Positions 3,734 through 26,446 of a stretch of 64,000 bases of DNA are shown here, one piece after another. The notes below the pieces were generated by a model. It saw only the letters and a list, made by a program, of their open reading frames with translations, made no database searches and was not told where the DNA came from. Every line of letters begins with the position of its first letter. Positions within the stretch are counted from its first letter, which is position 1. Both the position numbers and the translations under genes were made by a program. Origin of the DNA: Sulfurimonas sp. (GTDB taxonomy: Bacteria > Campylobacterota > Campylobacteria > Campylobacterales > Sulfurimonadaceae); NCBI GenBank assembly GCA_028689055.1, contig JAQTWZ010000001.1:106786-170785 (forward strand), written 5' to 3'.

Positions 3734-4826
3734 GATTATTTCCCAAGTTATTTTCTGCTTTTTTAATGTCGCTTGTGTTAACAGCCGTGACTTTGTCCCC
3801 ATCGGAGACAAACCCTTGTCCGGTGACAATAATATTTGCTCTTTTTGGAAGGCCGGTCACATAGATTCCTTCAGTTATAGAACTGATGATTTTTGTTTTA
3901 TGGAATGCTACTAATCCTTCCTCAGTAACACTTTTTACACCAACATTTCCTTGCTGATCAAGCGTCAAAAGGCCAGGCGAAATGAAATGTGCCAGTACTT
4001 GGCGTTTTGGAATTTTAGCAATGATACTGGTTCCAGAAGGCTTGCCTTCTGGATTGGAAATTGCAATCTCAATCCGAAATGTTTTAGTTTGTGAATCAGC
4101 ACGCGGTGCGATAAAGCGAATTGTTCCTTCTTTCTTTTCTCCTGTTGTAAATTCTACTTGTGCCATACCGCCAATCATAAGAGCATTGATTTGCTGCTGA
4201 GGCACCGGTACTGTAGCAATAAGAGGATTGTTTTCTATAATCGTGGAAAGCTCGTCTCCCACAGAGACATAATCACCGATTTCAATCTGCTGGATAGAAA
4301 TAATACCAGCAAACGGTGCTTTTATAGAAGTGTTTTTGATATCAACTTTTATCTGCTCTTCATCAGCTAGAGCGCTCTTATACTCAGAGTAGGCCATATC
4401 GATTTTTGTTTTTGCGGTATAACCTTTTTCTCCAAGATTGCGAACTGCTGTATACTTCTGCTTCATTTCAAAGCTTTTTGCTTCTGCTTTGGCAAGTCTT
4501 GCTTTACGGTCTTTCATATCAAGCTGCAAAATAATATTACCCGCTTTAACAGCGGCACCTTCATCAAGTGTTACTTTTTCAATGCTTCCGGCAGTTTCTG
4601 CACGCAGAGTAACTTCTCGATTTGGCATAACATCGCCGTATGTTACGATATAGCTTGTTACCGGTTGTGCCTCTTGCGTTTTAAACTCGACAACTACTTC
4701 ATGAACTTCATGGCGTAGTTGATTATTTTGCTCAGAGGATGTGTCTTTATCTCCTGTCATGCCTATGGCCATCCAGATAGCAATTGCGCCTACTAGGCCG
4801 GTCGCAGTCAGTAAAGATGTTTTCAT
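3720..4826 (-). CDS. RND efflux periplasmic adaptor (membrane fusion protein, HlyD family)
   Basis: N-terminal TM helix, coiled-coil hairpin region (KDRKARLAKAEAKSFEMKQKY), then beta-barrel domains. It lies directly upstream of and overlaps the RND permease. Confidence 0.85.
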   Translation of the reverse strand: MKTSLLTATGLVGAIAIWMAIGMTGDKDTSSEQNNQLRHEVHEVVVEFKTQEAQPVTSYIVTYGDVMPNREVTLRAETAGSIEKVTLDEGAAVKAGNIILQLDMKDRKARLAKAEAKSFEMKQKYTAVRNLGEKGYTAKTKIDMAYSEYKSALADEEQIKVDIKNTSIKAPFAGIISIQQIEIGDYVSVGDELSTIIENNPLIATVPVPQQQINALMIGGMAQVEFTTGEKKEGTIRFIAPRADSQTKTFRIEIAISNPEGKPSGTSIIAKIPKRQVLAHFISPGLLTLDQQGNVGVKSVTEEGLVAFHKTKIISSITEGIYVTGLPKRANIIVTGQGFVSDGDKVTAVNTSDIKKAENNLGNNHEHY

Positions 4827-5374
4827 GAAGTTTTTTCAATCTCGCCGTCGTCAGACTGACGAACAAACCGATTAGCATTTTTTTCCAGAAATTCTTTTTC
4901 TGCTTCCATCATTGTCATGGCGTAATCAACAAGGAAATGGGGGCCAATCCCTGCGTTTAGGCTTTCGTCACTTGTCTGCCAACTATTACATACATTTGTC
5001 CAATGCCCAAGCTCATTCAGCCTCTCAATCATAATTTCTTGCATACGTTCTGAATTGAGTGTATCTGCAAAAAACATTAACAACATAAGTTGTGAACGTA
5101 CTTTGTGCTTAGGTGAAAGATTCTGAAGGCTCTTTGTCCAAACATTTCGTCCCTTTTCCGTCAAACGGTAGATTTTTTTATCCGGGTATTTTTCCTGTTT
5201 TATTATAGTATAGGTAACAAGATTCTCTTGTGATAGATTTTTCAATGCCGGATAGACAGCGTTCGTAGAAACATCCATAAAGTGACCAAAATTCTCCTCT
5301 AATTGTTTTCGGATATCGTATCCAGAAGCATCTCCAAGCGTTAATATTCCAAGGCAGAGCGTTTTTGTGTTCAT
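4823..5374 (-). CDS. PadR-family transcriptional regulator
   Basis: Winged-helix signature GYDIRKQL...AVYPALKNLSQENLVTY..KKIYRLTEKG. It is the first gene of the efflux operon and overlaps the adaptor gene by 4 nt. Confidence 0.8.
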   Translation of the reverse strand: MNTKTLCLGILTLGDASGYDIRKQLEENFGHFMDVSTNAVYPALKNLSQENLVTYTIIKQEKYPDKKIYRLTEKGRNVWTKSLQNLSPKHKVRSQLMLLMFFADTLNSERMQEIMIERLNELGHWTNVCNSWQTSDESLNAGIGPHFLVDYAMTMMEAEKEFLEKNANRFVRQSDDGEIEKTS

Positions 5375-5521
5375 AAATATTCCTTCAAATAGTTTATTTT
5401 GTACTAGTATATAGTATAATAGTATGAAACAGCTTAACTTTCTGTAATAATTTTATTTTTGCATAATTACTAGATAAGAATAGCTTATTTAATTCAGTAT
5501 AAGTGAGTCAAAAATTTCCAA

Positions 5522-5556
5522 TATATAGTACACAACACTACACTGTGTACTATATA
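5522..5556. repeat. 13-bp perfect inverted repeat (TATATAGTACACA / TGTGTACTATATA) with a 9-nt spacer
   Basis: Read directly from the sequence. It lies about 100 nt downstream of the last gene of the hsd operon (minus strand). It could be a terminator hairpin or a protein-binding site. Confidence 0.6.
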
Positions 5557-5654
5557 ATTGAGTAGTGTTCTATTCTGAGGACTCTTTTATGCAAAGTGAT
5601 CAACTGTTCATATTTGACAATAAGTATTTGTTCAATATGTAACATTTAAGACTG

Positions 5655-6323
5655 CTACATAAATAGATCTGGGCCATTATTTTTAAGCCATTCTTTTTTT
5701 TCTATATAACTTGGCATCAAACGCTGCACTTCTCTCCAGAATCGTTCATTATGCGTATGCTCCTTAAAGTGAGCAATTTCGTGAATGATAATATAGTCAA
5801 TGACACCTATCGGCGCCATAGCAATCTTCCAGTTAAAATTTAAAACGCCGTCTTTTGTGCATGAGCCCCAACGGTAACCAAGTTCCATTATCTTATACTC
5901 GGGAAGTTCTAGGTTCAGATTTTTGTTTAAAGATTCCAGCCGTTCTTTGATTTTATCTTTTAAATGTTGCGTGTACCAGATTTTAAAGAGCTCTTTCGCT
6001 TTTGGTTGATATTTTTTGCCGAGGATAAACCAGCCATTTTTTAATTTTAAAGCAGAGTCTTCATCAACAATTTTAAGCCTATAACTTCTTCCCAAATAAT
6101 AAAAGCTCTCACCTGAAATAAACTTTTTTTGAGTGACTTTATCGTTATGCTCTTTTTTGATAGCAAGCTTTTCCCAAATCCATAATCTCTTTTTATAGAC
6201 ATGCTTATCTATTTCATCTTTCTCTAGCTCTTGAGGCGCATTTACAACTATGCTACCATTTCTCTCAACTGTTATGCCAATGCTAGAGCGTTTCGATCGT
6301 ACTAGGTCATAATCAATTAGCAA
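5655..6323 (-). CDS. DUF45/YgjP-like zinc metallopeptidase (M48/WLM-like) commonly linked to hsdR
   Basis: HExxH motif in IIIHEIAHFKEHTHNERFW. Probable TTG start. It overlaps the hsdR stop by 11 nt. Confidence 0.75.
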   Translation of the reverse strand: MLIDYDLVRSKRSSIGITVERNGSIVVNAPQELEKDEIDKHVYKKRLWIWEKLAIKKEHNDKVTQKKFISGESFYYLGRSYRLKIVDEDSALKLKNGWFILGKKYQPKAKELFKIWYTQHLKDKIKERLESLNKNLNLELPEYKIMELGYRWGSCTKDGVLNFNWKIAMAPIGVIDYIIIHEIAHFKEHTHNERFWREVQRLMPSYIEKKEWLKNNGPDLFM

Positions 6324-9300
6324 GCTCTAACCTCTTGAGCGGTTCATTGTTTTCTTTGGTAAGGCTCATATATTTTTCTTTTATATCAGGAATGTTTTTT
6401 ATGAGATTGGTTTGTTTTGAGTTTGCGATAAGACCTATCAAATAGTTCTCAAGATTGTGTCTTGAGTTCTCTCCTGTTGCGCCCCAAAAATCAACTCTTT
6501 TTATCTCTCGTGAAGCTTGTTCTACACTATTTATGACCAAATCAACGATAGTGTCGCATACTAAAGATGTACACTCTTCTGCGCTAAAATAACTCGTAAA
6601 GAGATCATAATAAGGCATACAGACTTCACAGTTAATTTTTTCAAACACCTCGAGTATTTCTCGTCCACCTTGCATCTCTTTTTTAAACTTAGAGAGCTTC
6701 TCAACTAACTTTTCCCATTCGCCTTTATGCTCAGCAATAATCTTTTCAAGTTTTTCCGCAAGAGACTTGTAATAAATCGGATCTTTATCAATATTTATTC
6801 GAATGGTATATCTCAGTGCATGTTCCATCTCAGAAGCAACAGCTTTATCTGGTCTGCCCTTGATTGCATCGCCAAACTCTTCATCAAAGATAGAGATCGG
6901 TCTCACTTTTGTTTCTATCCCTTCGCTAATGAGGTGCTCATCTATAAGTGCTCTTACTTTTGCGCCAAGACCTTCAATATTTAACTCCATATCTCTATAT
7001 CTGCGTTGTACTTCATTTTTAATAAGTCCCAATATCTTCGCATCATCTAAGTAGTATTTTTTAATTGGATTTGGCAAAATGAAATCAATAAGTTTTGTGA
7101 ACTCTTTAAACAGTACCTTAAATTCTTGGCGAAGCTTTTCGTCTGCAAGCAATATAATTGTATCTTCTAAAGTAGCATCACTTATCTCCTCAATCCCTTT
7201 TTCCGTAAAAAATTGCATCGCTTTTCTATGAGAGAGTTCTAACTGTGAAAGCTCGCTACTTTTATCACTCATGATGTCTGCGACATCACCGGCTTCATAG
7301 GATGCAAGAGCATCTTTAAGATGCGCTCCAACACCGTAATAATCAACAATAAGTCCTCTTGTCTTACCCTCATAAGTACGATTTACCCTAGCTATTGCTT
7401 GAAGCAGATTATGCGCTGTCAACTTTTTGTCCAGATACATAACTTGTTCTATCGGTGCATCAAAACCGGTAAGAAGCATATCGCTTACCACCAAAAAAGC
7501 AAGCTGGGACGTTTTTTGCATGTCGTAAATATCATCGCCATCTTTAGCATCATAAGGCGACATGCTAAAAAGTGGCTTTTTAAAATTGACTACGCTTTGC
7601 TCTTTATGCGTTTTTGAACTGTACTCTTTTGGAAACTCGTCTGCGTTATCGTTATGCTGATGAGATATGACAACTGTACTGCTTAACTTACCTACAAGTA
7701 CTTTATAAGGGTTATTGCCGTCCATTTTTTGATGGTACTCTGCTAACGCTTTTGAAATAGCTGTGTTGTAACGAAGTGCTGCTTTTCTTGATGAGCTAAC
7801 AACTTGTGCTTTGTAGCCGTTTGGCAATATATTTTCTACATAGTGTCTTACCATGTCTTTGGCGATGGCTTCTATGCGTTTGGGAGCTTCTAAAATATTG
7901 CCCTTTGTACCGTATTTCTTTTTTATCTGTTCTTGCTGCTCTTTTGCTAAATCTGCAAACAAGTCTTCAAACTTACCGTCAAATTCACCCTTGTTCTCGA
8001 TGGCATCTTTGGAAGTCATTCCCTCATAGATGATGGGAACCGTAGCCCCATCATCTACAGCTTCTCTAATCTTATAAGTGTCAATGTAAGAGCCAAAAGA
8101 ATCTACTGTTTTTTCAACCGGTGTTCCCGTAAAAGCAATCCTTACTGCGTTTGGAAGAGCGGTCCTAAGTGCTGCGCCAAGTTTTGAGTACTGCGTTCGG
8201 TGCGCTTCGTCTATGAGTACAAGTATCTCCTCTTTATCGCTAAGAGATTTAAAAGCCTCATCATCATTGAACTTTTGCATCATAGTCATCGTGATATCAC
8301 TCACATCATTAGAGAGTTTCTTTTTCAAGTCATTCGCACTTATAGCAACCGATATTTTCTCACTAGTAAGTGTCGCAGTATCTTCAAGTTGTTCTTCCAA
8401 ATCACTTCTATCGACTATGAATAAAATTTTATAATTTTGCATCTCTTTTTGATGTCTTGAGTGTTTGATGAGAAAAACCATCGTAAGTGATTTTCCGCTT
8501 CCCTGAGTATGCCAAATAACGCCGTTGCGCTCTTTTACACTCTTAGCCTCAACGATTCGTTTTATAGTCTTCTTAACTGCTCTATACTGCTGATAACGGC
8601 ATACGACCTTTACACGTTTGCGTCCGCTTCCCATGACGATAGTAAAATCTCTCATAATTTCAAGAAGGTTTTGCTTACAGAGCATTCCGGCAACTAAAAT
8701 ATCCTGTTCATCACTGCCGAATTTTTCTAGTGATTCTGGATATGGGTCTTTCCAACTAAGATAATGCTCTAATTTTGAGCTGATAGTGCCGGATTTTGCT
8801 TGTGTTCTTGAGGAAGTTACCACGAAGGCATTGGTATTGAAAAGTTTAGAAGCACCTTCGGCCTGTTCAGTTCCTCTTGTGTTCATATACCTTTTAAGTT
8901 GATTGACCGCTTCTGCCATCGGGTCTGTTATATCGGGAGCTTTACACTCGACAACAACCAAGGGGATGCCGTTTACGAAAAGTGTAATATCTGGAATGAT
9001 AGTCTGAGCACCATCGACCATAAACTGTGAAATTGCCAAAAAGTCATTGTTTTTTATATTTTCAAAGTCTATATATCGTACCGTAGGAGATTTTGCACCT
9101 GTGTCATGGTTGAGATCCACCGATGTATTTTCAAGCAAGAGTTCGCTACATGCGAGATTGTTTTCAAAAAGAGAAGATTTGTTGATGTTTTCTAAGGTAG
9201 CTATGACCTCCTTTACCTGCTCATCTTTGAGCCATGAGCCGTTGATTCTTTTTATGGCAGATGAGAGTTTATCTTTTAATAGTACCTCTTTAAAGCTAGT

Positions 9301-9435
9301 TCTATTTAAAAGAGCTTTATCGGTTCTATGTTTATTATCCGCGTCTTCTACAACTAAAGTGTCCCATTCAAGCACTTTTAATTGCTCTAAAAATTTCTCT
9401 TCAACATACTTCGCTTCTCGTATCCAACTGCTCAT
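6313..9435 (-). CDS. hsdR: Type I restriction endonuclease subunit R
   Basis: Helicase motif I WHTQGSGKSLTM and DEAH box LIDEAHRTQY, with an N-terminal nuclease region (VVVECKAP). The preferred start is MSSWIREAKY at 9435, which forms an ATGA overlap with the upstream stop. Confidence 0.93.
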   Translation of the reverse strand: MSSWIREAKYVEEKFLEQLKVLEWDTLVVEDADNKHRTDKALLNRTSFKEVLLKDKLSSAIKRINGSWLKDEQVKEVIATLENINKSSLFENNLACSELLLENTSVDLNHDTGAKSPTVRYIDFENIKNNDFLAISQFMVDGAQTIIPDITLFVNGIPLVVVECKAPDITDPMAEAVNQLKRYMNTRGTEQAEGASKLFNTNAFVVTSSRTQAKSGTISSKLEHYLSWKDPYPESLEKFGSDEQDILVAGMLCKQNLLEIMRDFTIVMGSGRKRVKVVCRYQQYRAVKKTIKRIVEAKSVKERNGVIWHTQGSGKSLTMVFLIKHSRHQKEMQNYKILFIVDRSDLEEQLEDTATLTSEKISVAISANDLKKKLSNDVSDITMTMMQKFNDDEAFKSLSDKEEILVLIDEAHRTQYSKLGAALRTALPNAVRIAFTGTPVEKTVDSFGSYIDTYKIREAVDDGATVPIIYEGMTSKDAIENKGEFDGKFEDLFADLAKEQQEQIKKKYGTKGNILEAPKRIEAIAKDMVRHYVENILPNGYKAQVVSSSRKAALRYNTAISKALAEYHQKMDGNNPYKVLVGKLSSTVVISHQHNDNADEFPKEYSSKTHKEQSVVNFKKPLFSMSPYDAKDGDDIYDMQKTSQLAFLVVSDMLLTGFDAPIEQVMYLDKKLTAHNLLQAIARVNRTYEGKTRGLIVDYYGVGAHLKDALASYEAGDVADIMSDKSSELSQLELSHRKAMQFFTEKGIEEISDATLEDTIILLADEKLRQEFKVLFKEFTKLIDFILPNPIKKYYLDDAKILGLIKNEVQRRYRDMELNIEGLGAKVRALIDEHLISEGIETKVRPISIFDEEFGDAIKGRPDKAVASEMEHALRYTIRINIDKDPIYYKSLAEKLEKIIAEHKGEWEKLVEKLSKFKKEMQGGREILEVFEKINCEVCMPYYDLFTSYFSAEECTSLVCDTIVDLVINSVEQASREIKRVDFWGATGENSRHNLENYLIGLIANSKQTNLIKNIPDIKEKYMSLTKENNEPLKRLELAN

Positions 9436-10778
9436 TTCATAATCTCCCAATGTCCGCCTTTGGCACCGCCGACTCTGTCTATATAACCGTTTTCTTTTAA
9501 TGATTTAATATGTTTTTCTATAGCCGTTGTACTAATGTCGAGTTCTTCAGCCATTTTTGTAATTGCAATTTTTGGATTATTCTGCATGAGCTTCATAATA
9601 GCCTGCTGCGTTTCACCCAACTTTTCACCCAACTTTTCACCCAACCCATTTTCAACTTTTTCACCCAAGTCATTAAAATAAAACTCCACCCATAAACCAT
9701 TTTGCCATCTGAAGTTTGGTGTGATGCCATTGAACTTTTGTGACTCTTCTATGATTTTCTCAATCCCTCTTCCCCAAGACTCTATATATCCAGCCAAGAA
9801 AAAAGGATACGCAATAGCAGGGTTAAAAGGTTCCGATGAGTGTTTATGTTTGAGCGTTTCTAGCGTCCATTGTGTCGGTAATTCTCCGGCATTCCACATG
9901 AGCAACTTATCGTCATACACACTTATTTGGATGCTGTTTTGTGAGGCATAGTCTTTATGCACAACCGCATTAACAAGAGCCTCCCGAAATGCAAGTTCAG
10001 AAACAGGAAAACTCTCTACTCTTTGAACCCCTTCATAAGTGATAATCGCTTTGAGATATTTTGTGAAAATCAAGTCCATGGTTTTATCCACTTGAGCAAA
10101 TAAGTTTCCTTCCACTTGGTCTTGATACACAAGGTCACTATCGGATTTAAAGTATCCTATTTTTATAGTGCTTCCTGTTACATACTTTTGTGGGTCTTTA
10201 GAAAAAAGCAGCGTTGTCGCGCGTTTGAGATAATCGCCCTCTCTTAGGTGAAGCTTATCGACGAGCGTCTCATCACTCTCTTTTAAAAGTTCTGCATCTA
10301 TTCTTTTTTTCTTGTTTGCTTTTTCACGAAATAGCTCTATGGCATAATGATCCAAATCTTTGAAGCCAAAATACGGAACAGGCACACCATCCCATTTCTT
10401 GCCTTGTTTTCTCAAAAGAAACTTATCAAGTGCGGCACCCTTTAGCTCTTGAGTACTGCTTCCGCTTCTGTAGTAGTACGAACCTTTGTAGCTGATAGGA
10501 TACGGATAGTTTTCAGTGATGATTTCAAGATACTCTTTGCCGTTTTCCACATGCCGATTCACATCAACCATCACACCCAAAATATCTCTGACTTTGTTCG
10601 GTATGTCTTCAAGTAGTTTTTTAGCGTTCTCGATTCCAACGATTGCGCCGTCGTCTTCTACCCCGATGTAAATCGTACCACCGTCACTATTTGCAAAAGC
10701 ACAAACCCATTTGATGTAATCATCTTTCCATAATCGTTTAAATTCAATGGTTTGGGATTCATTAATATCAAGGTTCAT
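9432..10778 (-). CDS. AlbA_2 (Schlafen-like) / HATPase_c_4 / C-terminal wHTH protein (COG2865-type putative regulator)
   Basis: N-terminal ESQTIEFKR...FANSDGGTIYIGVEDDG (AlbA_2 signature) and C-terminal HTH KIAITKMAEELDISTTAIEKHIKSLKENGYIDR. Confidence 0.75.
   Translation of the reverse strand: MNLDINESQTIEFKRLWKDDYIKWVCAFANSDGGTIYIGVEDDGAIVGIENAKKLLEDIPNKVRDILGVMVDVNRHVENGKEYLEIITENYPYPISYKGSYYYRSGSSTQELKGAALDKFLLRKQGKKWDGVPVPYFGFKDLDHYAIELFREKANKKKRIDAELLKESDETLVDKLHLREGDYLKRATTLLFSKDPQKYVTGSTIKIGYFKSDSDLVYQDQVEGNLFAQVDKTMDLIFTKYLKAIITYEGVQRVESFPVSELAFREALVNAVVHKDYASQNSIQISVYDDKLLMWNAGELPTQWTLETLKHKHSSEPFNPAIAYPFFLAGYIESWGRGIEKIIEESQKFNGITPNFRWQNGLWVEFYFNDLGEKVENGLGEKLGEKLGETQQAIMKLMQNNPKIAITKMAEELDISTTAIEKHIKSLKENGYIDRVGGAKGGHWEIMK
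9611..9668. repeat. In-frame 12-nt tandem repeat (TTTTCACCCAAC, about 3 full copies plus degenerate copies) encoding (LGEK)n
   Basis: Read directly. It encodes GEKVENGLGEKLGEKLGET in the linker before the C-terminal HTH of the AlbA_2 protein. Confidence 0.8.
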
Positions 10779-12571
10779 CTATTTTTACCTTTTTTATATA
10801 ATTCTTCTTCAATTTCTTCTTCTTTTTCTTTAAGATTTCTTTGAATATAACTCATTCTAGCACGAGCTTCTTGCACAAGTTCTTGATAACTCATAGATAT
10901 GGTTCTTATTGGTCCAGAAGTAGTTTCTCTTTGTATTCCTTCTTCATATTCTGAACCAACTATGTAAACATTAAAAAAAGCCTCTTTAGTAAAAGTTTTT
11001 TTAACAACACTTGCATAACGCTCACCCTGAGCTTTATTTTCAAATGTAATTGCTTGTCCTGGCTTTTTTAATTCTAATATAAGAAATTCATTTCTCATTA
11101 AAATATTTTCTTGCATTTTTATGAACAAATCTGGTCGTTTTGAAGAATGATGACCACTATATGAACTATCTAAAATATTTTGTGAAATAGTTTTTAAACT
11201 TTTATTCGATATAAACCACTCATATCTTTCATCAACAATCCAAATATTTTCTGCAAGCACCTTATGAGTACCTTGCAATTCAAGTGTTTTTGGATCATTA
11301 ACCATCTGTTCAAACGCATCAAGAACTTCAAATCGCTGTTGTAATATTGTCAAAACATCAGCTACTTCCTTTATCCCCCACTGCTGTAAAGCTGCAGCTA
11401 ATTTTGTTATATCTTCATGACGAGCTTCATTAAGTCTTTTTAATATTTCATATACTTCATGTTGTTCATACGATTTCAAAGATAGTTCCATAACAGTTTT
11501 TATCAGATCTTTCTTATTGTATTTGATAGTTTTTATTGATTCTTTGATAGTGTTTTCTGCTGCTTTTCTAGTAAAGCTTGGTAAACTTTCTATGCGATGT
11601 TTATACTCTGGAATAGCCATATTTTTTTTGAACTCTTCCTCTACATCTGTATTGATTTGTAGCTCTACCTCTTCCATTAAAATATTTCGTATTTTTTCTT
11701 TCAACTCTCTTGTTATCTCATTATCTAAAATAGAATCCCAACCTGCAGTAAAATTTACACCTTCTAAATCAGTTAAATCTAGTTCACCATAAATATGTTC
11801 TGCTATTTCCTTTGGTAATTTTGCACCAAAAACATTAGTATCTCCTATAGCCCTATCATTAAATTTTAATTGTATTCCATAATCATTAAGTTTATCAACT
11901 GCATTGATAATCCAACCATTTATATCTTGACCAGCGATATTAATTGAAAATTCATGCTTCTCCCCAATAATCTCTTTAGTTTGGAGTTTTTCACCATTAA
12001 TATAAATTTCAAAATCATCATGCAAACCAAAATTGGATAATAATTTCTGTTTTAGGGTGTCAATAGGTATATCTAACTGTGAAATGTCAACTATAATGAT
12101 AAGTACAGAACTATTTTTTGAAGTTTGTTCCGTTTGTATGTTAATATTGATGTCATTAATATCTTTTTGCTTTTTTATCTCATCATGAGATAATTCAAAC
12201 TTATGTTGTATATTATTTTTAATTACCGTATATTTTAACTTTTTACCAAGTTTAAAACCGGACAATCTACCAATGCCTTTATTGCCTTTTCTTTTTCGGC
12301 CATTTGGTGATGTAGGGGGCTGAGAAGAAACACTAATATTAAAAAATCTATTTTTCAACTCGTCCATGTCCATGCCATGACCATTGTCTTCAAATGTGAT
12401 TACTCGTTCTTCCAACTTATCACTAGATAATGATATTTTTATATCTACCCTACTTGCATCGGCATCATAACTATTTGCAACAAGTTCAACAAAAGGCTGA
12501 TATATATCTTTATATATTTCATCACTTAGTAATTTAAAGATATTTGAATCTGCATGAAAATTTTGAGTCAT
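10775..12571 (-). CDS. GHKL-type ATPase (HATPase_c_3-like) fused to a C-terminal PD-(D/E)xK, Shedu/DUF4263-like nuclease motif
   Basis: Bergerat-fold boxes: ELVANSYDA (aa 29-37), FEDNGHGMD (aa 60-68), GNKGIGRLSGF (aa 96-106). C-terminus: ENIWIVDERYEW...SKRPDLFIK...FLILELKKPG (D481, E500, K502). Confidence 0.7.
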   Translation of the reverse strand: MTQNFHADSNIFKLLSDEIYKDIYQPFVELVANSYDADASRVDIKISLSSDKLEERVITFEDNGHGMDMDELKNRFFNISVSSQPPTSPNGRKRKGNKGIGRLSGFKLGKKLKYTVIKNNIQHKFELSHDEIKKQKDINDININIQTEQTSKNSSVLIIIVDISQLDIPIDTLKQKLLSNFGLHDDFEIYINGEKLQTKEIIGEKHEFSINIAGQDINGWIINAVDKLNDYGIQLKFNDRAIGDTNVFGAKLPKEIAEHIYGELDLTDLEGVNFTAGWDSILDNEITRELKEKIRNILMEEVELQINTDVEEEFKKNMAIPEYKHRIESLPSFTRKAAENTIKESIKTIKYNKKDLIKTVMELSLKSYEQHEVYEILKRLNEARHEDITKLAAALQQWGIKEVADVLTILQQRFEVLDAFEQMVNDPKTLELQGTHKVLAENIWIVDERYEWFISNKSLKTISQNILDSSYSGHHSSKRPDLFIKMQENILMRNEFLILELKKPGQAITFENKAQGERYASVVKKTFTKEAFFNVYIVGSEYEEGIQRETTSGPIRTISMSYQELVQEARARMSYIQRNLKEKEEEIEEELYKKGKNR

Positions 12572-12579
12572 TTCTTTCC

Positions 12580-15501
12580 TTAGTTATTTTTATTATTATT
12601 TTTACATTTAAAAATGCGATCTTCCACTTCATCTTTATCAAAATCAGGAGGAGTAGGCTTAAAACTTTTATCATCCTTTTGTAACTCATACTCTAATACT
12701 TGAAATTCACGTAACTTGGCAATATCTAATTTTGTTGTTAAAATTGTTGCATTATTTCCACCCTTAATCTTTATAAGGTCTTTAATATCTGTTCTAGATG
12801 GTTGATGTACTCTATTATCACCATATTTTGCGTCATTAGATTGTATAAAGTAACAATGTAAATCTCTTGCACTAGATTCGATAATATTTGAAAAGTATGA
12901 TGTATCTTTATTAAACTCACTAGCTACAATAAAATCAACCTTAGATTTAAAAAGTGCTCTTGCATGAATATCGGTTAATTCATAACAATTAAAGGTTGTA
13001 AATGAAAGATTTTTCCATAGATACTTATGATAACTTTTTCTTTCATATTCTGGAATTTTATATCTATATCCTTCTAAAATACGTTTTTCCTCTGGTGAAT
13101 AATTATTTTTTAATCTGAAGTCAACAATTAAAGAATTGTATTTACCCATTTTAATTGGTAATAGAGTGACAATAATGTTATATGCTTTATTACCTGATAT
13201 TATATGTTCCATGCCAAATACCATTGCGAGCTGATTTTTATTTGCGTTGTCAATAATCCAGCTTAACCAATTTAATGGAATTGAACATTCTGGTAAGACT
13301 AATAAGTCAACAGATTCTTTTACACTTTGATTAATAAGCTCTTGAATTTCAGTTTTTCTTTGATGTGAAGGTTTTGGATTTCTAATATATTCTTTACTAA
13401 AAATAGTTTCATCAATCCTAATATTTGCCAAAGCTATGTTTAATGATTTTTTGCAATCATCTTCATTGATAGTAATTGAATAAATATGATGATTATTAGG
13501 ATTCACATTTTCATCAATAGCATCAATAGCATCAACAATTCCTAATTTTTTTTCTTTTTTACAATGCTGATAGTTATAGCATTCAAATAATTTTTTAGAT
13601 TTGTTTAATACAGACTCAGCACTTGTTATATTATTACCAAGGATATTTTCTTCAATCCTATATAGGTACTCTAAAATTGATATTTCATGTAAATGAATAA
13701 ATCGTGAAGGATAATTACATGTTTCTTGCAGTTTTGAAATTTTATCTGGTTCTATAAAATCAAGATAAGGTACCGTATTAAATGCTTCTACAAAATTCAG
13801 TATAGAATACTTCATATAACTTTTACGCGTTAAGTCGGCATTTCTTATTTGAAGTATTTTATCAATACTAGGTAGTAACTTTTTAATTTTTTCCGCAGCT
13901 TTTTCAACTATAGAATCTATGAAATATTGAGGACGCAGTGCAGCTGCAGAACTGATTGCGATAGATAAATGTATCAAAAAATCTTCAGCGATTTTTTTAT
14001 CTTTTACTGGTAGTTTTTTTAATGCCAGCTCAATATTTTTAATAAATTTATAGAAACTATTACGATCTTTAGTGATAATAAAATATGTGAATATTTTTTC
14101 CCATAATGTGTAATATTCTAAAGATTTTTTTTCTTTAAAAAATTGTAAAATTTGGGTAGAAGTTGCTTGATCAACTTTACTTTTCATTTGAAGACTTAAA
14201 AATATTTTTTTAGCTAAAAATGAAGAAATAGTAAACCTGTCCTCTTGGAATTCTTTAATGCTTCTTAGTTTATTCACTGAACCGTCATAAATAATTTTAA
14301 TTGTAGATTCTTCAAAACTTTCATTGGCTAAATCTTCATCAGGCAAGAATCTATATTCGCTACTTGATCTTCGAATTTCTTTTACAAATCGATCAAGCAT
14401 TGACAAAGAACTCTTATGATCAAAAAACATTACTGATATTTTGCTATTTTGAATAGTAAGATTACTATATTGTTCAGCTGCTAATTTATAAAGAATATCA
14501 CCATCTTTTTTAGCTATGTTGTCACAACTCTCACATCTAAGTATATTTGTATCAAGAAAGTATTTCTTTATAACTTCCTCAGTTTTTGTATACTTACTTG
14601 AACTATCCACACAAATCGTAAGCAATATATCATCAACATATCTACCATAAAACAAAGGATTTATCTCTTTCTTAGCTAATAGATCAAAATCCCGTAAATA
14701 ATAATTTGCAAGTACTCCAGATGATAAAAAACCAATAGGTAAAATTGGTTTTTTATCATGCTTTTTTAATATTTTTTTTGTATAAAAATCATGGATTGCA
14801 AACAATAATGATGTTAGTGGATTTGCTTTACTGTAAGTACCTATAGTTTTCAGAAGGTTTTCTTCATTTAGTTCAATTGAATGATAATAGTCTTTAATAT
14901 CTAATCCAATTAGTAATGTATTTTTCTTTTCTTCAATAATATTTTTTGCGGTTTGAATAGACTTATCACGCCATTTTTGATACTCTTCATAGTATGGCTT
15001 AAATAATCTTAGCCCATTTACAATTTCACCTTCAGAATCTAATTCTAGTTTATAACCATATAAATCTTCTTGCCCTTTTTGTAATACATAACCTTCTCTC
15101 ATAATCCATAAAACTGTAATTATATGAATCTCGATTGGAGCATTGACAAATTGAATTTCTCTTTTAACTTCAATTTTTTCATTACTTACTACATTGCTAA
15201 GTAGGCTGTCTTTTAATTCTTCATCTTTTTCATAACTCTTTGGAAGAGACCAAAAACTCATCTGCTTTAAAAGATTATTCATATAAGTATTTAATGATTT
15301 TATTGACTCATGATCTCTATTAATAATATCCTCTAATACTATTTGTAGTTCTTCAAATTTATACTCAAAATCTGTTGATTCAAATTCTGCAAGCTGTTCT
15401 CTAAGAAAAAGATTACTGTTATCATAATAAACATAATGCTTTAATTTTTTATAAGCATTTTGAATTTCATTTAATTCTATTTTTAATTTTAATGTACTCA
15501 T
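12580..15501 (-). CDS. Reverse transcriptase fused to a C-N hydrolase (nitrilase-superfamily) domain; DRT type 1 / UG-class-1-like defence RT
   Basis: RT motif A LIGLDIKDYYHSI (D201), motif B ILPIGFLSSGVLANYYLRDFD, motif C FYGRYVDDILLT (YVDD 288-291). A helical region of about 300 aa follows. The C-terminal putative E-K-C triad is LVLPECS (E738), FRLKNNYSPEE (K798), TTFNCYELTD (C839). Confidence 0.8.
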   Translation of the reverse strand: MSTLKLKIELNEIQNAYKKLKHYVYYDNSNLFLREQLAEFESTDFEYKFEELQIVLEDIINRDHESIKSLNTYMNNLLKQMSFWSLPKSYEKDEELKDSLLSNVVSNEKIEVKREIQFVNAPIEIHIITVLWIMREGYVLQKGQEDLYGYKLELDSEGEIVNGLRLFKPYYEEYQKWRDKSIQTAKNIIEEKKNTLLIGLDIKDYYHSIELNEENLLKTIGTYSKANPLTSLLFAIHDFYTKKILKKHDKKPILPIGFLSSGVLANYYLRDFDLLAKKEINPLFYGRYVDDILLTICVDSSSKYTKTEEVIKKYFLDTNILRCESCDNIAKKDGDILYKLAAEQYSNLTIQNSKISVMFFDHKSSLSMLDRFVKEIRRSSSEYRFLPDEDLANESFEESTIKIIYDGSVNKLRSIKEFQEDRFTISSFLAKKIFLSLQMKSKVDQATSTQILQFFKEKKSLEYYTLWEKIFTYFIITKDRNSFYKFIKNIELALKKLPVKDKKIAEDFLIHLSIAISSAAALRPQYFIDSIVEKAAEKIKKLLPSIDKILQIRNADLTRKSYMKYSILNFVEAFNTVPYLDFIEPDKISKLQETCNYPSRFIHLHEISILEYLYRIEENILGNNITSAESVLNKSKKLFECYNYQHCKKEKKLGIVDAIDAIDENVNPNNHHIYSITINEDDCKKSLNIALANIRIDETIFSKEYIRNPKPSHQRKTEIQELINQSVKESVDLLVLPECSIPLNWLSWIIDNANKNQLAMVFGMEHIISGNKAYNIIVTLLPIKMGKYNSLIVDFRLKNNYSPEEKRILEGYRYKIPEYERKSYHKYLWKNLSFTTFNCYELTDIHARALFKSKVDFIVASEFNKDTSYFSNIIESSARDLHCYFIQSNDAKYGDNRVHQPSRTDIKDLIKIKGGNNATILTTKLDIAKLREFQVLEYELQKDDKSFKPTPPDFDKDEVEDRIFKCKNNNKNN

Positions 15502-16724
15502 CTAACCCTCACATTCCCGCTAAGTAAATCATTCATCAAGCCTTTTTTTAGCTCTTTTAGTTTGGCTAGGTTAGCTTCTTCTTTTTCGATTTTTTTATCT
15601 TGAGTGGTTAGGATTTTCGCAGTCTTTTTTTGTTCTTCGATATCTAGTGGACAAGGTAAAAGCAATTTTGAAAAGGATGATTTATTTACAATCGGTACAG
15701 CTTGTAATCCAGCTTCTGTATCCAATTGTCTTTGTAAAAATTGGTTCATGGCATAAAATACAAATCCATAATAATATTTTTTGTTACACATCAAAGCATT
15801 TATTTGTTGATTTGTACAACATTGTTTTATGGTTAAAGCTATTTTCCCAATTGTTGAGCCTATGCATACCGTTAGAATTGCTTTTTCAGAAATTTCTCTT
15901 GAATATTTAAGACCCTCTTGTGATACAGTTTTTTCAGTTTTTACAATATATTTTTGTCCCTTAAAGTCCACTGGACCGATGAAAGGCACATTACCATTGT
16001 AAAATTCTTCATTATCTGTTGAAGGAGTGTTTCCCGTAACTACATTTCCAACTTCTTCTAAACTCACAACCTCCCACTCCTCAGGGATGAGCCCTAATTC
16101 ACTTTGTTTGTATTTATGTGTTTGTGGGGTGCGGATTTTGTTGTTTTTGTCTATGCCGTTGGTTAGCAAGTCGTGCATCAAGCCTTTTTTGATATTTTTT
16201 TCTTTATCGATGAGTTTTGCGGTTGACTCTATAGTTTTATCAAGAGTTGAGAGGACTTTGGCTATTTTTTGCTGTTCTTTTATTTCTTTTGGATATTTAA
16301 TCAATAATTTACCAAAATCATTTTTGCTTATTGCTAGAAATGTGCTTCCTTGAGCTAATCTATCTAATTGAACCTTTTCTTGAAATAAAGAATAAAATCC
16401 GAACTCATTATCTAACTTTGTTATTGTAAGTGCGGCTAAACCTCTTCCAATACAATAACTTTTGTCAGCTAAATTCATATCACCGACAGGTGCTCTAACA
16501 CTAATAAGAATATCACCTTGTTTAGCTATCTTTTTAGGTACGGTAACCCAATATAATTCCATGGGATTTATATTTCCGAACTCTGCATTACCTTGCAAAA
16601 ATGGTATCCCATCCTGACTTTCATTTACAAATTCAGAATCAGGAGATTGCCCCATATTAATGCTTGCTAAAGCTGAAAAAGGTTTTACTTCCCACCCCTC
16701 GGGCACATTCATAACTTCGCTCAT
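15498..16724 (-). CDS. hsdS: Type I R-M specificity subunit S
   Basis: Two target-recognition halves, each followed by a conserved helix ([17 protein letters not shown] and [17 protein letters not shown]). The preferred start is [13 protein letters not shown] at 16724 (ATGA overlap with the hsdM stop), not the track's 16820. Confidence 0.9.
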
Positions 16725-18940
16725 AGATACCCAAGCTCTGCTAAAAACTCTTTTATCTCTGCGGTTGATTCGTCGCGCTCTTTTTCTATCTGCTCTAAAC
16801 TTACTTGGTATTTGTCCCAAAGGTTTTCTGTGCTTTTTATGATGGCTTGTTTTTTCTCATTTAGGTATCTGTTTGCTATTTCAAGTGCATCGGTTTTTAG
16901 CTGTTGTACTACAAAGGGTTTCACATCTGCGATGTTTTCAAATATTTGCTCTTTTATTTGAGCGATTTTTTCTCTTATGACGACTCTGTCGTTTTCTTCT
17001 TTGGCAGATTTTAGTTTTTTGAGAAGCTCCATATACTTGGCATGTGGAAGGTGCGCTTCTTCAGCAAGTGTATCTACAAACGCGCTGCTGCTCAAAAACT
17101 TCTCGCTTAAAAGATTGTAGTCGTAACCGCTGTTTTTTATGGACTTGATTGTAAATTTATTTTCAACCCACCATGAAGCGAAAATGCCTCGTATCTTAAA
17201 TCTGTCTATCACTTCATGGCTTGTTGACGTAAACGCTTTTTCTATGAGAGCATAGCCCTCAACATAGAGTGTGGCGATGTTGCTGCTCTTTTCATCCACA
17301 AGTGTTTGATAGCCATCGTGCCATGTGGAAACTATGCCAAGCACCATTGCATCCGTCTTTTTAAAACCCTCCGAAGCTTCTAACACTTCTCTTATGTTTT
17401 GTTTTTCTTGTATGGTCTGTATAAATTCATAGTAGTTTTCATCTTTGGTTTGAAAAATATCGCTCGGAGTCAGCATGTAGTTAGCCATCAAAGGGGCGTT
17501 CCACTCGCACTTTGGAATGCCGCCCTTGAGATGCGCTTTGACATCGTGAGGTTCTGCCGGGGGAGTGTTGTCTACATAGCGTCTTATGTTTAGGTTGAAA
17601 CCCTCTTTTTCCAACTCTTCTATGCTTACAAGCTTGGAGTAGTTTACAAGCTCAAGAGTGTTTTGATACGCAAAGTTGATTTTTTCTATATCTTCGGCTC
17701 TAAGATTGTTTTGGTTTTTCCCCTCTTTGTACTCTGCGTCTGCGTTTATAAAAAGGATTTTGTCATCTTTTTTGGCTTTGTTGATGATGAGCAGAGAAGC
17801 AGGAATGCCCGTGCCGTAAAACAGCCCCGATGGCAAGCCTATCACCGCTTCAAGAATGCCGAGTTCTTTGATGAGATGCTTTCTAAATTCACCCTCGACA
17901 CTCCCGCGAAAGAGCACTCCATGCGGCATAACCACACCCATTTTACCACTGCTTTTAAGTGAGGCTATCATATGCTGGACAAACATATAATCGCCTTTTT
18001 TGCCACCCTCAGGCATAAAGTGAGAAAATCTCTCTTTGAAAGTCATGTCGGATTTTTTGTAGTTTTGAGAAAAAGGCGGGTTGGCTATAACTCTGTCAAA
18101 CTGCATCAACTGCCCATCTTTTGTGTGGAGCGGTTTTTCTAGCGTGTCTTCGTTCTTTATGTCTGCATTTGATATGCCGTGCAAAATCATATTCATCTTG
18201 CACATCGCCCAAGTGGTCGCTATGGCATCTTGCCCGTTAAGCGAAAAGTCGTTTGAGTTATAAATCTCTTTGATGTGCTCTTTTGCCTGAATGAGCATAC
18301 CACCGCTTCCCACCGTAGGGTCGTAAATGCTCATGCCGGGTTTTGGGTCGAGGATTTTTACCAGAAGTGTCACCACTCCGCTTGGCGTGTAAAACTCTCC
18401 CGCTTTTTTGCCCGCACTATCTGCAAAATACTTTATGAGATACTCATACGCCGCACCTAAGAGGTCGGGAAATTCAAAATCCTCATCCCTGAGACGAATC
18501 TTATCAAAGTGCTGAAGGAGTTGTTGGAGTTTTGCATCGGAGATTTTAGAGTTGCCGACTTTTTTGTTAAAGTCTATATGCTTGAGTACATCTTCTAGGG
18601 ATGAAAGATTGGCTTCTTCTATGGCAGAGAGTGCTATGTTTAGGTTTTCACCTATGTTTTTTTTGAGGTGTCTGAGGGTTTCCCATTTTGCATTTTGAGG
18701 GATGGTAAAAGTAAATTTATGATTTGCTAAAAGTATCTCTATGGTGGCATCGTCATGTCCATCTTTTTTGTAGCTGTCTCTTACTCTGTTGTACTCTACA
18801 TCGTACTGGTCTGAGAGCCGTTTGAGAAAAAGCATACCGAAAATATACTCTTTAAACTCACTCGCCTCCATCTTGCCGCGAAGTATGTCAGCGGCTGAAA
18901 AAAGGTGTTGTTCTAGTTGAGAAAGGGTGAGTTTTTGCAT
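16721..18940 (-). CDS. hsdM: Type I R-M N6-adenine DNA methyltransferase subunit M (with a long C-terminal extension)
   Basis: AdoMet motif [12 protein letters not shown] and catalytic VIANPPFS. N-terminal HsdM_N-like region [14 protein letters not shown]. At 739 aa it is longer than the roughly 520 aa I would expect. Confidence 0.93.
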
Positions 18941-19159
18941 CTATATCAGTCCATCTTTTTGCATTCGTTCTTGTAGGGCTATTGTTATATATGAGTTCAC
19001 AGTTCCACCATAATATGCTTTAATTTTATCTTCCCATTCTATCGGAATGTTGATAAGTTTTTTCTTTTTATTAAACGCTTTTTCATTTTTTACGTTTTCA
19101 TTCATAGCTGCCGAAGATTTTACTTGTTCTATATTTTTGAGAAATGATGATTTTGCCAT
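18941..19159 (-). CDS. Small basic protein following parA (possible ribbon-helix-helix/ParG-like partner); function uncertain
   Basis: 72 aa. It lies 40 nt downstream of parA and its stop abuts the hsdM ATG with no gap. The only fold hint is the C-terminal NSYITIALQERMQKDG. Confidence 0.4.
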   Translation of the reverse strand: MAKSSFLKNIEQVKSSAAMNENVKNEKAFNKKKKLINIPIEWEDKIKAYYGGTVNSYITIALQERMQKDGLI

Positions 19160-19199
19160 TTTATATTCCTTAGATATTTAAAATATATACTTTTAATAT

Positions 19200-19844
19200 T
19201 TATACTATATTTAATTTTAACTTTACTTCTTCAAATAAAGCATCAAATTCTTGGTCAGCCTTAGAAAAGATACGAAACTCTTTTATGCTTTTTCCGACAC
19301 CTATAGAGTTTGCTATATCAACACGCTGTCTTATAACGGAAGTCATAAGTTCAAAGTGTTCTGACATACAAATGAACTCTATCAAGTCACCGAAGTTTTT
19401 CATTGCCGGATTGAGATTGTTAAATAGAACATTTGTTTTAATAGTCTCTTTTTGTATTTCCGAAAGTGATTTCAGTATCTCTTCATATTTTTGTAATCCC
19501 ATTAGATCAAAGGGTTTGTCTGAAACAGGAGTAATGAGTAAATCTGAGCCGACAATTGCAACTCTATTAAACGCACTGTCAAATCCACCAGAGTCAATGA
19601 TGGTCAATGCGTTTGGCTTGTCATTTTCAATGTGCAAAGCAAGCTCACCTGCGTTACTGACATGTTTGATAGTTAGAGGATCTAAACCTTGGGACTTTCT
19701 GATTTGATTTGTTTGCGTTAATGACTGCTGAGTATCTAGGTCAATAATTGTGGTCGGCAGGTGTTTTGAAAAGTGAACAGCCAAATTCCAAGCTATTGTC
19801 GACTTTCCAACACCACCTTTTTGATGAGAGACAGCTAATATCAT
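19200..19844 (-). CDS. parA: ParA/Soj-family partition ATPase
   Basis: Deviant Walker A SHQKGGVGKSTIAWNLA, then IIDLDTQQS and IIDSGG. Confidence 0.85.
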   Translation of the reverse strand: MILAVSHQKGGVGKSTIAWNLAVHFSKHLPTTIIDLDTQQSLTQTNQIRKSQGLDPLTIKHVSNAGELALHIENDKPNALTIIDSGGFDSAFNRVAIVGSDLLITPVSDKPFDLMGLQKYEEILKSLSEIQKETIKTNVLFNNLNPAMKNFGDLIEFICMSEHFELMTSVIRQRVDIANSIGVGKSIKEFRIFSKADQEFDALFEEVKLKLNIV

Positions 19845-19894
19845 ATATACTCTTTATATTTTTAAGATATAAAAAGTATATACTTTATATACTT
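19844..19894. repeat. TATATACT[TC] iterons upstream of parA (three copies, two in tandem; a fourth copy at 19184-19192)
   Basis: Read directly: 19844-19852 TATATACTC; 19877-19885 and 19886-19894 TATATACTT. 19874-19885 forms the 12-bp palindrome AAGTATATACTT. Confidence 0.55.
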
Positions 19895-20300
19895 AATGTT
19901 TACGAGAAAAATTTATAATAAGCTGATGAGCTATGAATAGTTCGGGCCAAATTATCCATTGTCTGTCACTTTGCTCATCTGCACTTTGGTAATAGACACC
20001 AAGCATCAGTGCTTTAAATGTCAATGTTTCTTTGTTTTGACTATCGATAAATATGTATCCTTCTTGAATAAACAAATTGACTAGGTGTGATCGCCTAATT
20101 TTATGTGAATTTGCAAGGGTTGATGTGGAAACATAACCCTTTTTTGTAATTTTAGAGCTTCTTCTTCTTTTTGCTATTTTTTGATAAATTTTTCTATTGA
20201 CAAGATTTGGATAAATGTTGAATTTATGTAACAAGATCAATTTCAATAAATAGAATTTTATAAAAAATTTAATAAGAAACAGTTGCATTTTAATCTCCAT
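19893..20300 (-). CDS. Hypothetical protein
   Basis: ORF only. Its N-terminal 30 aa look non-genic, so the true start may be internal. I recognise no motif. Confidence 0.35.
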   Translation of the reverse strand: MEIKMQLFLIKFFIKFYLLKLILLHKFNIYPNLVNRKIYQKIAKRRRSSKITKKGYVSTSTLANSHKIRRSHLVNLFIQEGYIFIDSQNKETLTFKALMLGVYYQSADEQSDRQWIIWPELFIAHQLIINFSRKH

Positions 20301-21107: not shown

Positions 21108-21136
21108 TTGACTTATAGATTTATAATACTTATAAT
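21108..21136 (+). promoter_or_regulatory. Sigma-70-like promoter TTGACT-17 nt-TATAAT for the XRE repressor gene
   Basis: TTGACT at 21108-21113 and TATAAT at 21131-21136 with a 17-nt spacer (counted). The ATG lies at 21183. Confidence 0.45.
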
Positions 21137-21182
21137 TCAATTAGTGTAAAGGAAATCTTTACTTTATAAATATGGGGAATAT

Positions 21183-26429: not shown

Positions 26430-26446
26430 TACAATACATTCAAGTT

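Follow-up and report, generated by a model that had tools for sequence, protein, structure and literature searches.

Results

A packed seven-gene array on one strand

We analysed a 64,000-nucleotide stretch of Sulfurimonas sp. DNA (contig JAQTWZ010000001.1, positions 106,786 to 170,785; hereafter the window, in whose coordinates positions are given) and, within it, a tightly packed type I restriction-modification (R-M) locus that holds three genes of other families between its specificity gene hsdS and its restriction gene hsdR. An initial annotation had given the gene order as hsdM-hsdS-RT-GHKL-AlbA_2-hsdR-YgjP (DUF45), and it agreed with our list of open reading frames (ORFs) in coordinates, strand and domain labels, all seven ORFs lying at the positions it gave and every one on the minus strand. 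The window genes were compared with about 180 related loci, which carry L-numbers. One of these, L001, is the matching contig from the metagenome-assembled genome (MAG) GCA_028713105.1 and was the source of the public gene calls used for comparison. From hsdM onwards the genes are:

16721-18940, minus strand: hsdM, 739 amino acids (aa); HsdM_N and N6_Mtase (3e-101), PADLOC MTase_I 8e-232
15498-16724, minus strand: hsdS, 408 aa from the ATG at 16724 (likewise 408 aa in the L001 gene call); Methylase_S twice, ATGA overlap with hsdM
12580-15501, minus strand: UG5-large reverse transcriptase (RT)-nitrilase fusion, 973 aa, DRT11 family; PADLOC RT_UG5-nitrilase 4e-227
10775-12571, minus strand: paraMORC3-like GHKL plus predicted nuclease protein, 598 aa; HATPase_c_3 7e-20, Foldseek matches to MORC2/MORC3
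9432-10778, minus strand: 'Schlatpase'-winged helix-turn-helix (wHTH) protein, 448 aa, COG2865; Pfam AlbA_2 7e-19, HATPase_c_4 1e-15, HTH_24 5e-10
6313-9435, minus strand: hsdR, 1040 aa from the ATG at 9435; HSDR_N, SWI2_SNF2, T1R_D3-like, TIGR00348 3e-151
5655-6323, minus strand: YgjP-like (DUF45, SprT-type) zinc metallopeptidase, 222 aa; PF01863 2e-57

Direct reading of each junction bore out the four ATGA overlaps and the 11-nucleotide (nt) hsdR/DUF45 overlap that had been reported. The tetranucleotide is common to the hsdM stop and the hsdS ATG (16724-16721), to hsdS and the RT gene (15501-15498), to the GHKL and AlbA_2 genes (10778-10775) and to AlbA_2 and hsdR (9435-9432). The RT and GHKL genes are separated by an 8-nt spacer that contains a GGAAAG ribosome-binding site, and hsdR overlaps YgjP by 11 nt provided that YgjP starts at the TTG at 6323. 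Overlaps of 4 nt are denser here than in the local background, being found at 4 of the 6 junctions in the locus versus 4 of 49 same-strand junctions elsewhere in the window (hypergeometric p ~0.003). The public gene call on L001 places the hsdR start at a TTG at 9450, 15 nt further up, which would give a 19-nt overlap. We consider the ATG at 9435 the better start because homologues align from its residue 1, a GGGAG lies 8 nt upstream, and the 4-nt AlbA_2/hsdR overlap recurs in L084, L168 and L177. The three inner genes are flanked on both sides by one system and lie on its strand, which constitutes embedding sensu Payne et al. 2024.

It had further been argued that no internal gap is long enough for a promoter, so that the embedded genes must be co-transcribed with the R-M genes. 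The first point holds for the intergenic gaps but is silent on promoters inside coding sequence. A scan with the sigma-70 consensus, which models Campylobacterota promoters poorly, returned 62 promoter-like sites versus 63.2 +/- 8 in shuffled sequence, and since this count is at chance level the scan is uninformative on internal promoters. One weak terminator-like hairpin lies inside the array on the coding strand (10395-10373). Because the genes share one orientation, gaps of at most 8 nt, conserved overlaps and this single weak internal hairpin, with a strong hairpin following about 100 nt after ygjP, co-transcription of all seven is the most economical reading of the sequence; it falls short of obligatory, internal promoters being possible.

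An intact type IC-like backbone

HsdM combines the HsdM_N (PF12161, 3e-29) and N6 adenine methyltransferase (PF02384) domains of type I modification subunits, and the two Methylase_S stretches of HsdS (PADLOC Specificity_I 7e-66) correspond to two target recognition domains. HsdR scores above the TIGR00348 cutoff and is full length, with a PD-(D/E)xK nuclease at its N terminus and with an SF2 motor. The D...ExK of the nuclease, the Walker A GSGKS and the motif II DEAHR all align with HsdR of EcoR124I, a type IC enzyme and the sole solved HsdR relative found (124 bits, E 4e-35). The M-S-R gene order also fits type IC, and we regard the backbone as type IC-like. A non-functional hsdR, it had been pointed out, would make this a decayed locus. 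The protein is similar in length to that of L168 and its gene has no frameshift or stop; since it is full length with the nuclease and helicase motifs aligned, we do not consider hsdR decayed.

YgjP follows hsdR in L005, L008, L028, L037, L061, L085, L086, L088, L089, L120, L168, L176 and L177, and is the conserved last gene of the backbone, found after hsdR in essentially every related locus.

At its C terminus HsdM carries an extension of ~230 aa without any Pfam domain (residues ~470-739, window 16721-17530). The extension is also present in a Sulfuricurvum locus (HsdM of 737 aa) and in L088 (901 aa); most other RT-carrying hsd loci are without it (HsdM ~505-525 aa).

The three embedded proteins

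The PADLOC match of the RT-nitrilase covers residues 7-962. Its RT domain matches RVT_1 and is of the UG/Abi class 3 type with a YxDD motif, and both the YVDD at residues 288-291 and the E738/K798/C839 triad of the fused C-N hydrolase (nitrilase) are invariant across 20 homologues. By tblastn the protein matches the DRT11 locus of S. meliloti RMO17 pSymA (25.6% identity, 5e-25). In DRT11 the RT-nitrilase protein alone protects, also in a heterologous Sinorhizobium strain, with no non-coding RNA (ncRNA) involved and with behaviour like that of abortive infection (Abi) (PMC13436386). A downstream transmembrane (TM) partner accompanies a minority of UG5-large systems and is non-obligatory, being needed in the E. 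coli system and not in DRT11 (PMC13436386). Beside the window RT such a partner is absent: the next gene, 8 nt after the RT stop, is the GHKL nuclease. An Rfam search of the whole window at gathering thresholds and a tRNA scan returned nothing, and thus offered no sign of either a DRT-type ncRNA or a tRNA attachment site; together with the lack of flanking non-coding space, the empty Rfam scan fits the independence of DRT11 from ncRNA. The window protein thus resembles DRT11 in its full-length UG5-nitrilase match, its YVDD and nitrilase triad, and the absence of room for a flanking ncRNA (PMC13436386; Mestre et al. 2022, PMC9226505; cf. the system of Rousset et al. 2022). It differs in being only ~26% identical to the validated protein, in lacking the downstream TM protein, and in its apparent coupling to hsdS in an R-M operon.

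The second embedded protein is built, in order, of a MORC-type GHKL ATPase, an S5/transducer domain, a coiled coil and a C-terminal domain. Foldseek aligned the ATPase module to MORC2 and MORC3 (E ~1e-14 over 366-387 columns), a PDB profile search agreed, and residues E29, N33, D36, D62, G64 and G96/G99/G101 are invariant. The fold search with the whole model was dominated by this module, and the C-terminal domain was modelled separately; its top fold matches (NucS, MspJI, McrC, Cap4) are all weak, with E >= 0.02. In that domain D481, E500 and K502, on consecutive beta strands, are invariant, and profile searches found weak HSDR_N_2 matches in 18 of 25 homologues and SduA_C, VRR_NUC or NucS_C in a few. 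Mainly the invariant D-ExK residues and the weak profile matches indicate that the domain is a PD-(D/E)xK nuclease. The GHKL plus S5 module, the C-terminal D-ExK nuclease fold and the R-M association recall paraMORC3 (Iyer, Abhiman & Aravind 2008, PMC2292703) and the GHKL-Shedu protein VcSduA (PMC12137116), from which the window protein departs in that its nuclease domain is not detectably DUF4263/SduA_C and its BbrUII/HgiDII score falls under the cutoff. Two narrower assignments were tried and rejected on these grounds: Shedu itself (SduA, DUF4263), with no PF14082 match in the window protein, weak matches in 2 of 25 homologues and no PADLOC Shedu match; and the BbrUII/HgiDII family, with an NF050001 score of 127.7 bits versus a cutoff of 550 and its best stretch in the GHKL part (residues 11-200).

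The GHKL family is large, comprising 2210 clusters at 50% identity (E <= 1e-30). Close homologues (53-97% identical) occur in Sulfurimonas, Sulfuricurvum and Aliarcobacter, and more distant members in a type III-like R-M locus, a P2-like prophage and an integrase island. In L181 (963-14814) a 58% identical homologue is nested in another multi-gene system, with the order SNF2 helicase, DUF4391, DUF3800, N6_N4 methylase, 414-aa protein, GHKL, metallo-beta-lactamase fold protein and ResIII/RE_endonuc.

The third protein joins AlbA_2 (PF04326) to HATPase_c_4 (PF13749), both matches being above their cutoffs; this is the Schlatpase, or COG2865, architecture. Its invariant residues are E7, E12, K14, the FxN of a SAFAN-like motif, and E266/N270 of the GHKL ExxxN. 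In SLFN-pAgo the Schlatpase module is a tRNA-cleaving effector in which the GHKL part acts as an ATP-dependent oligomerisation switch, and R-M operons are reported to contain the module too, either as a gene of its own or fused to HsdS (bioRxiv 10.64898/2026.05.29.728809). The window protein shares the AlbA_2 plus GHKL supradomain with SLFN-pAgo (same preprint), whereas it is without the Argonaute core and ends in a wHTH instead.

The hsdS-hsdR interval in related loci

Closely related backbones carry quite other inserts. The Sulfuricurvum backbone L168 (HsdM 66%, HsdR 64% and YgjP 55% identical to the window's) holds in its slot a 199-aa protein, GHKL, proteins of 388 and 308 aa, DUF4325, PIN and an AlbA_2 protein of 597 aa, and no RT. 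The slot of the Arcobacter plasmid locus L176 reads hypothetical protein-SLATT-DUF87-AlbA_2, and that of the Aliarcobacter plasmid locus L177 KAP NTPase-AlbA_2. Blocks of shared DNA identity start and stop at gene borders: an RT block (15642-12613) is shared with L083 (94%) and L084 (74%), a GHKL-only block (12579-10795) with L168 (73%), a GHKL plus AlbA_2 block (12577-9434) with L166 and L174 (75% each), and an AlbA_2-only block (10778-9432) with L176 (76%) and L177 (73%). Base composition differs as well. The RT and GHKL genes have a G+C content of 26-30%, with the RT at 26%, versus 38-39% for AlbA_2 and 38-44% for the hsd genes. Each insert is also found outside hsd loci. The varied cargo of close backbones, the gene-border blocks and the G+C step together lead us to see the embedded genes as independently exchangeable cassettes in a slot; they are probably three, and at least two, independently shuffling cassettes and not one co-adapted cargo.

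As to which inserts vary, the contents of the slot differ among related hsd loci (KAP NTPase, SLATT plus DUF87, PIN, Fic, RT, GHKL), but AlbA_2 is often retained. The AlbA_2 gene stands without GHKL directly before hsdR-sprT on the two Arcobacteraceae plasmids and is a semi-permanent resident beside hsdR; homologues at 48-50% identity are solitary genes on Bacteroidota plasmids. The GHKL gene is followed by the same AlbA_2 protein (56-79% identical) in L166, L172 and L174, with the same 4-nt overlap in L166 and L174 and a distance of 2 nt in L172. The pair is frequent, not obligate. We rejected an obligate pairing on finding GHKL without this AlbA_2 protein in L168, L170 and L181 and AlbA_2 without GHKL in L176, L177 and L178-L180.

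A second GHKL-AlbA_2/HATPase_c_4/wHTH pair, 73% and 75% identical in aa sequence to that of the window, lies at 10001-13128 of L166 (JAQTOW010000007), which is another contig of the MAG that supplied L001. There it is placed after an AAA_21 ATPase and a 336-aa protein. In L172 (3856-10003) and L173 the GHKL nuclease and AlbA_2 come directly after an N6_Mtase (642 aa) and an HsdS (350 aa), and the 17-kb contig has no hsdR; it is conceivable that the GHKL nuclease serves as the restriction component in this case. The Arcobacteraceae plasmids have, between hsdM and a full-length hsdS, a RhuM-family gene (L176 3317-4300, L177 5747-6730), with a truncated extra hsdS before hsdM, and this site is a second insertion point in the same backbone.

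Recurrent embedding of UG5-large reverse transcriptases

Our census took in 163 UG5-large RT loci, drawn from GTDB genomes and from metagenomes. At least 12 have the RT gene between hsdM/hsdS and hsdR on the same strand, and 13 others either neighbour hsd genes or are truncated by the end of a contig; of the 81 loci whose flanks are long enough to judge, 10 are embedded in an hsd operon. No hsd gene was detectable in 138 of the 163 by tblastn with the window's own Hsd proteins, a search that undercounts divergent hsd families. The embedded RTs span at least five subclades of a neighbour-joining tree; their sources, among which are Tenacibaculum, Aquimarina, Marinomonas and Bermanella, belong to Bacteroidota, Gammaproteobacteria and Campylobacterota relatives and include a Melioribacteraceae MAG. 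Packing is tight, with the RT usually 2-40 nt from hsdR and the distance from RT stop to hsdR start ranging from an 8-nt overlap to ~40 nt in seven of the embedded loci read. All embedded RT loci belong to one backbone family, with HsdM 41-52% identical and YgjP after hsdR wherever the downstream flank is present.

The close relatives of the window RT are from metagenomes only. L083 (RT 94% identical) reads hsdS-RT-GHKL and L084 (74%) hsdM-hsdS-RT-AlbA_2(597 aa)-hsdR, while L085 and L086 (46%) both read hsdM-hsdS-x-RT-Fic-hsdR-ygjP, x being a 382-aa protein in L085. Between L083 and the window the RT and GHKL genes are 94% identical in DNA, and HsdS is only ~35% identical upstream of its last ~135 nt (window 15635-15501, L083 528-662). 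HsdS was exchanged here and the cargo retained.

Discussion

Competing explanations

The explanation that we favour, with a probability of about 0.68, is that the R-M operon is a carrier on an integrase-bearing island whose hsdS-hsdR slot takes up self-sufficient defence cassettes, the resulting layers being independent of one another. The hsdM-hsdS-...-hsdR-ygjP backbone would supply the promoter and the ride on a mobile island, and the hsdS-hsdR interval would be a recombination-tolerant slot in which cassettes are inserted and exchanged gene by gene. All genes would be transcribed jointly from one or more promoters at or upstream of hsdM, with translation probably coupled at four junctions through the ATGA overlaps. 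Unmethylated DNA would be restricted by the type I enzyme. The DRT11-type RT-nitrilase would mount abortive infection that needs its YVDD and nitrilase E-K-C centres and no ncRNA. The paraMORC3-like GHKL plus PD-(D/E)xK nuclease protein may cleave DNA under ATP gating, as proposed for VcSduA, and the Schlatpase-wHTH protein, an almost fixed hsdR neighbour in Campylobacterota, may be an SLFN-type RNase or tRNase effector with a GHKL oligomerisation switch, the roles being those in SLFN-pAgo. Linkage would then mainly serve co-regulation and co-transfer while the layers act independently.

Several observations weigh against the carrier explanation. All members of the window RT clade with visible flanks (L083-L087, 46-94% identity) are hsd-linked, as is L088, which branches beside that clade at 36%; no hsd gene is seen at L003 and L004, which are interleaved with them. 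Identity declines in parallel for the RT and the Hsd proteins. Six of the seven distinct close GHKL loci abut hsdS, the exception being an Aliarcobacter island without hsd genes. The L166 pair is appended to a different type I system in the same genome, one with hsdR-hsdM-hsdS order and an EcoEI_R_C domain. In addition, the classification of RT loci as lying outside hsd loci is partly a limit of sensitivity, since divergent hsd families are undercounted. The RT-hsd link is more persistent than plain hitch-hiking predicts.

This persistence, shared by the GHKL/Schlatpase-hsd link, speaks for a guard of the PrrC kind, in which one or more of the embedded proteins, most plausibly the RT-nitrilase beside hsdS or the Schlatpase beside hsdR, would be held inactive by assembled HsdMSR or monitor it and fire upon phage anti-restriction as a back-up abortive response. 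The slot is the same as that of prrC in the type IC EcoprrI locus (PMC12707154), and the closest solved relative of the backbone is the type IC enzyme EcoR124I; the recurrence of tightly packed RT genes between hsdS and hsdR, in at least 12 loci from several phyla and at least five RT subclades yet on one hsdM/hsdR/ygjP family, points the same way. Translational coupling would fix subunit ratios, and the Abi behaviour of DRT11 is the right kind of second line. If the RT depended on Hsd proteins in this manner, however, it is hard to reconcile with the majority of UG5-large loci that have no hsd neighbour, with DRT11 acting alone in a heterologous Sinorhizobium strain, or with the L168 backbone, which at 64-66% identity has no RT. 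PADLOC models also found no PrrC/RloC-type ABC ATPase-anticodon nuclease among the embedded proteins. We judge a guard unlikely, and still the strongest of the alternatives. Its stricter form, in which UG5-large RT-nitrilases and possibly the GHKL/Schlatpase pair are dedicated guardians of one type I family, produced at a fixed ratio to HsdS and HsdR by translational coupling, that sense the loss of Hsd function brought about by phage anti-restriction proteins and trigger abortive infection, ranks below it as a doubtful proposition; if true, the principle known from PrrC would apply to reverse-transcriptase and Schlafen effectors as well.

Less probable again is that the Schlatpase-wHTH protein is an accessory or regulator of this type I system, for example a DNA-binding controller of hsdR expression or an adaptor, with the GHKL nuclease perhaps its partner. 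Its C-terminal winged helix, the filing of its family under transcription by eggNOG and a G+C content like that of the backbone would suit such a role. So would the presence of an AlbA_2 gene directly before hsdR, overlapping the hsdR start, in the window, L084, L168, L176 and L177, the last place that the protein takes in operons of a different type I family (L166 and L174), and the reported fusion of a Schlatpase module to HsdS (bioRxiv 10.64898/2026.05.29.728809). Against this reading, the 48-50% identical homologues on Bacteroidota plasmids occur singly and have no hsd operon next to them, L180 having just a divergent S and methyltransferase pair ~3 kb off on the other strand. The invariant SLFN E7/E12 and GHKL ExxxN suggest an enzyme and not a mere repressor, and the same position is taken by AlbA_2 proteins of two lineages (448 aa and 597 aa) that are unrelated, at 23% identity, which looks like cargo replacement. 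That the insertions inactivated restriction and left a methylase with passengers is very improbable indeed: hsdR does lie 6 kb downstream of hsdS behind AT-rich foreign DNA, but its length, its reading frame and the D...ExK, Walker A and DEAH motifs are intact, its pairing with YgjP is conserved, as are the overlaps, and the same architecture recurs across phyla.

The combination of cargo had been called unusual and taken to suggest functional coupling. Because the slot is combinatorial, the combination is unusual only in a trivial sense; close backbones carry other cargo, and embedding of this kind has already been catalogued. Functional coupling is a possibility that the anatomy does not imply.

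Relation to known systems

The locus is a fresh example of the known nesting of defence genes in type I R-M operons and not a new kind of system. The comparison with Campylobacter rlo genes and PrrC that had been drawn is apt, since PrrC too lies between hsdS and hsdR, in a type IC system (PMC12707154). EcoprrI-PrrC and the window share the order hsdM-hsdS-embedded gene-hsdR and a type IC nearest solved relative, and the gene embedded in EcoprrI is a second-line defence. Unlike EcoprrI, the window has no PrrC/RloC homologue, and its three embedded genes are from other families. TgvAB in the type I R-M cluster of Vibrio cholerae VPI-2 protects without HsdR activity, and Campylobacter rlo genes are likewise nested (PMC11411939). 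Functional defence genes that act independently inside an active type I R-M operon are common to TgvAB and, as far as its sequence indicates, the window; TgvAB differs in being GmrSD-like type IV, whereas the window operon carries an RT-nitrilase, a GHKL nuclease and a Schlatpase.

The guilt-by-embedding survey of Payne et al. 2024 (bioRxiv 10.1101/2024.01.29.577857) catalogues genes that lie inside Hma, BREX, DISARM and type I R-M systems, reports 96.7% same orientation, and discusses genomic sink, co-transfer, co-regulation and back-up as explanations. The AlbA_2/HATPase_c_4/HTH_24 architecture appears as FAM_00002 in its supplementary tables of embedded genes. In contrast to the window, the main text has just one embedded DRT instance, of type III, and the portions consulted make no mention of UG5 or nitrilase. 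We found no literature report of RT-nitrilases inside hsd operons, the supplements of that survey being covered in part. Two aspects look new: the recurrent embedding of UG5-large RTs between hsdS and hsdR, and the occurrence of the GHKL-Schlatpase pair on two different type I systems in one genome.

The locus would offer an intact natural example of four defence layers that are probably co-expressed as one unit, and the hsdS-hsdR cargo slot of the type IC-like backbone is well delimited and can be mined for new defence genes. DRT11-type RTs in the PrrC position across phyla, and paraMORC3-Schlatpase pairs after varied type I systems, merit a systematic census. Should either association amount to a way of sensing that restriction has failed, class 3 DRTs or stand-alone prokaryotic Schlafen proteins would gain the trigger that is still missing for them.

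Flanking genes and signals

The packed array runs on upstream of hsdM, into a 72-aa ORF and probably a ParA-like gene, and candidate signals lie at both ends:

18941-19159, minus strand: 72-aa ORF whose TAG stop abuts the hsdM ATG (junction ...TGATATAGATGCAA); called as a gene on the public contig
19200-19844, minus strand: ParA-like ATPase, 214 aa, possible first gene of the unit; Pfam AAA_31/CbiA, NCBIfam ParA_partition 1.6e-28, under that model's cutoff
19902-19875: promoter-like site just upstream of the ParA-like gene, from the consensus scan
21123-21150, minus strand: best minus-strand promoter-like site of the region, TTTACA-16-TATTAT, a consensus match only; faces a divergent 11/12 site
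5518-5562, minus strand: hairpin with a 14-bp core stem (ATATAGTACACA...TGTGTACTATAT) followed by ATTGGAAATTTTTG, ~100 nt past the YgjP stop and before padR; RNAfold -16.8 kcal/mol in a 45-nt window

Because the stop of the 72-aa ORF abuts the hsdM ATG and the ParA-like gene lies 40 nt above that ORF, the 5' border of the transcription unit is probably upstream of 18940, and the site at 21123-21150 is a possible far-upstream start. Domain and profile searches returned no family match for the 72-aa ORF. Neither it nor the ParA-like gene was found upstream of hsdM among the related loci compared; the two may be island maintenance genes co-transcribed with the R-M operon. At the other end, the hairpin at 5518-5562, which was not among the sites returned by the consensus terminator scan, may be the terminator of the unit or a PadR operator.

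The locus is part of a mobile island. Its left side holds PadR and an AcrB-type efflux operon, and its right side ParA, helix-turn-helix (HTH) genes, a HipA toxin and a tyrosine integrase. Comparing the left border (4700-5700) with the integrase region (26000-31200) turned up no direct repeats of at least 13 nt, and megablast of 5000-20000 against the PLSDB plasmids gave no match. Two strong promoter-like sites in divergent orientation (11/12 and 10/12 matches) lie at 21108-21150, between an HTH_3/HTH_19 gene (21183-21854, plus strand) and a minus-strand run of small ORFs, namely an 80-aa ORF with a faint Xre-like match and ORFs of 159 and 135 aa, then parA; by its arrangement this region looks like a regulatory switch of the island. 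Further right, the region 26946-30592 contains the HipA-family toxin kinase, whose start is overlapped by 11 nt by a small ORF (26714-26956), the tyrosine integrase (28207-29481) and an AAA_14/DUF4143 ATPase (29351-30592).

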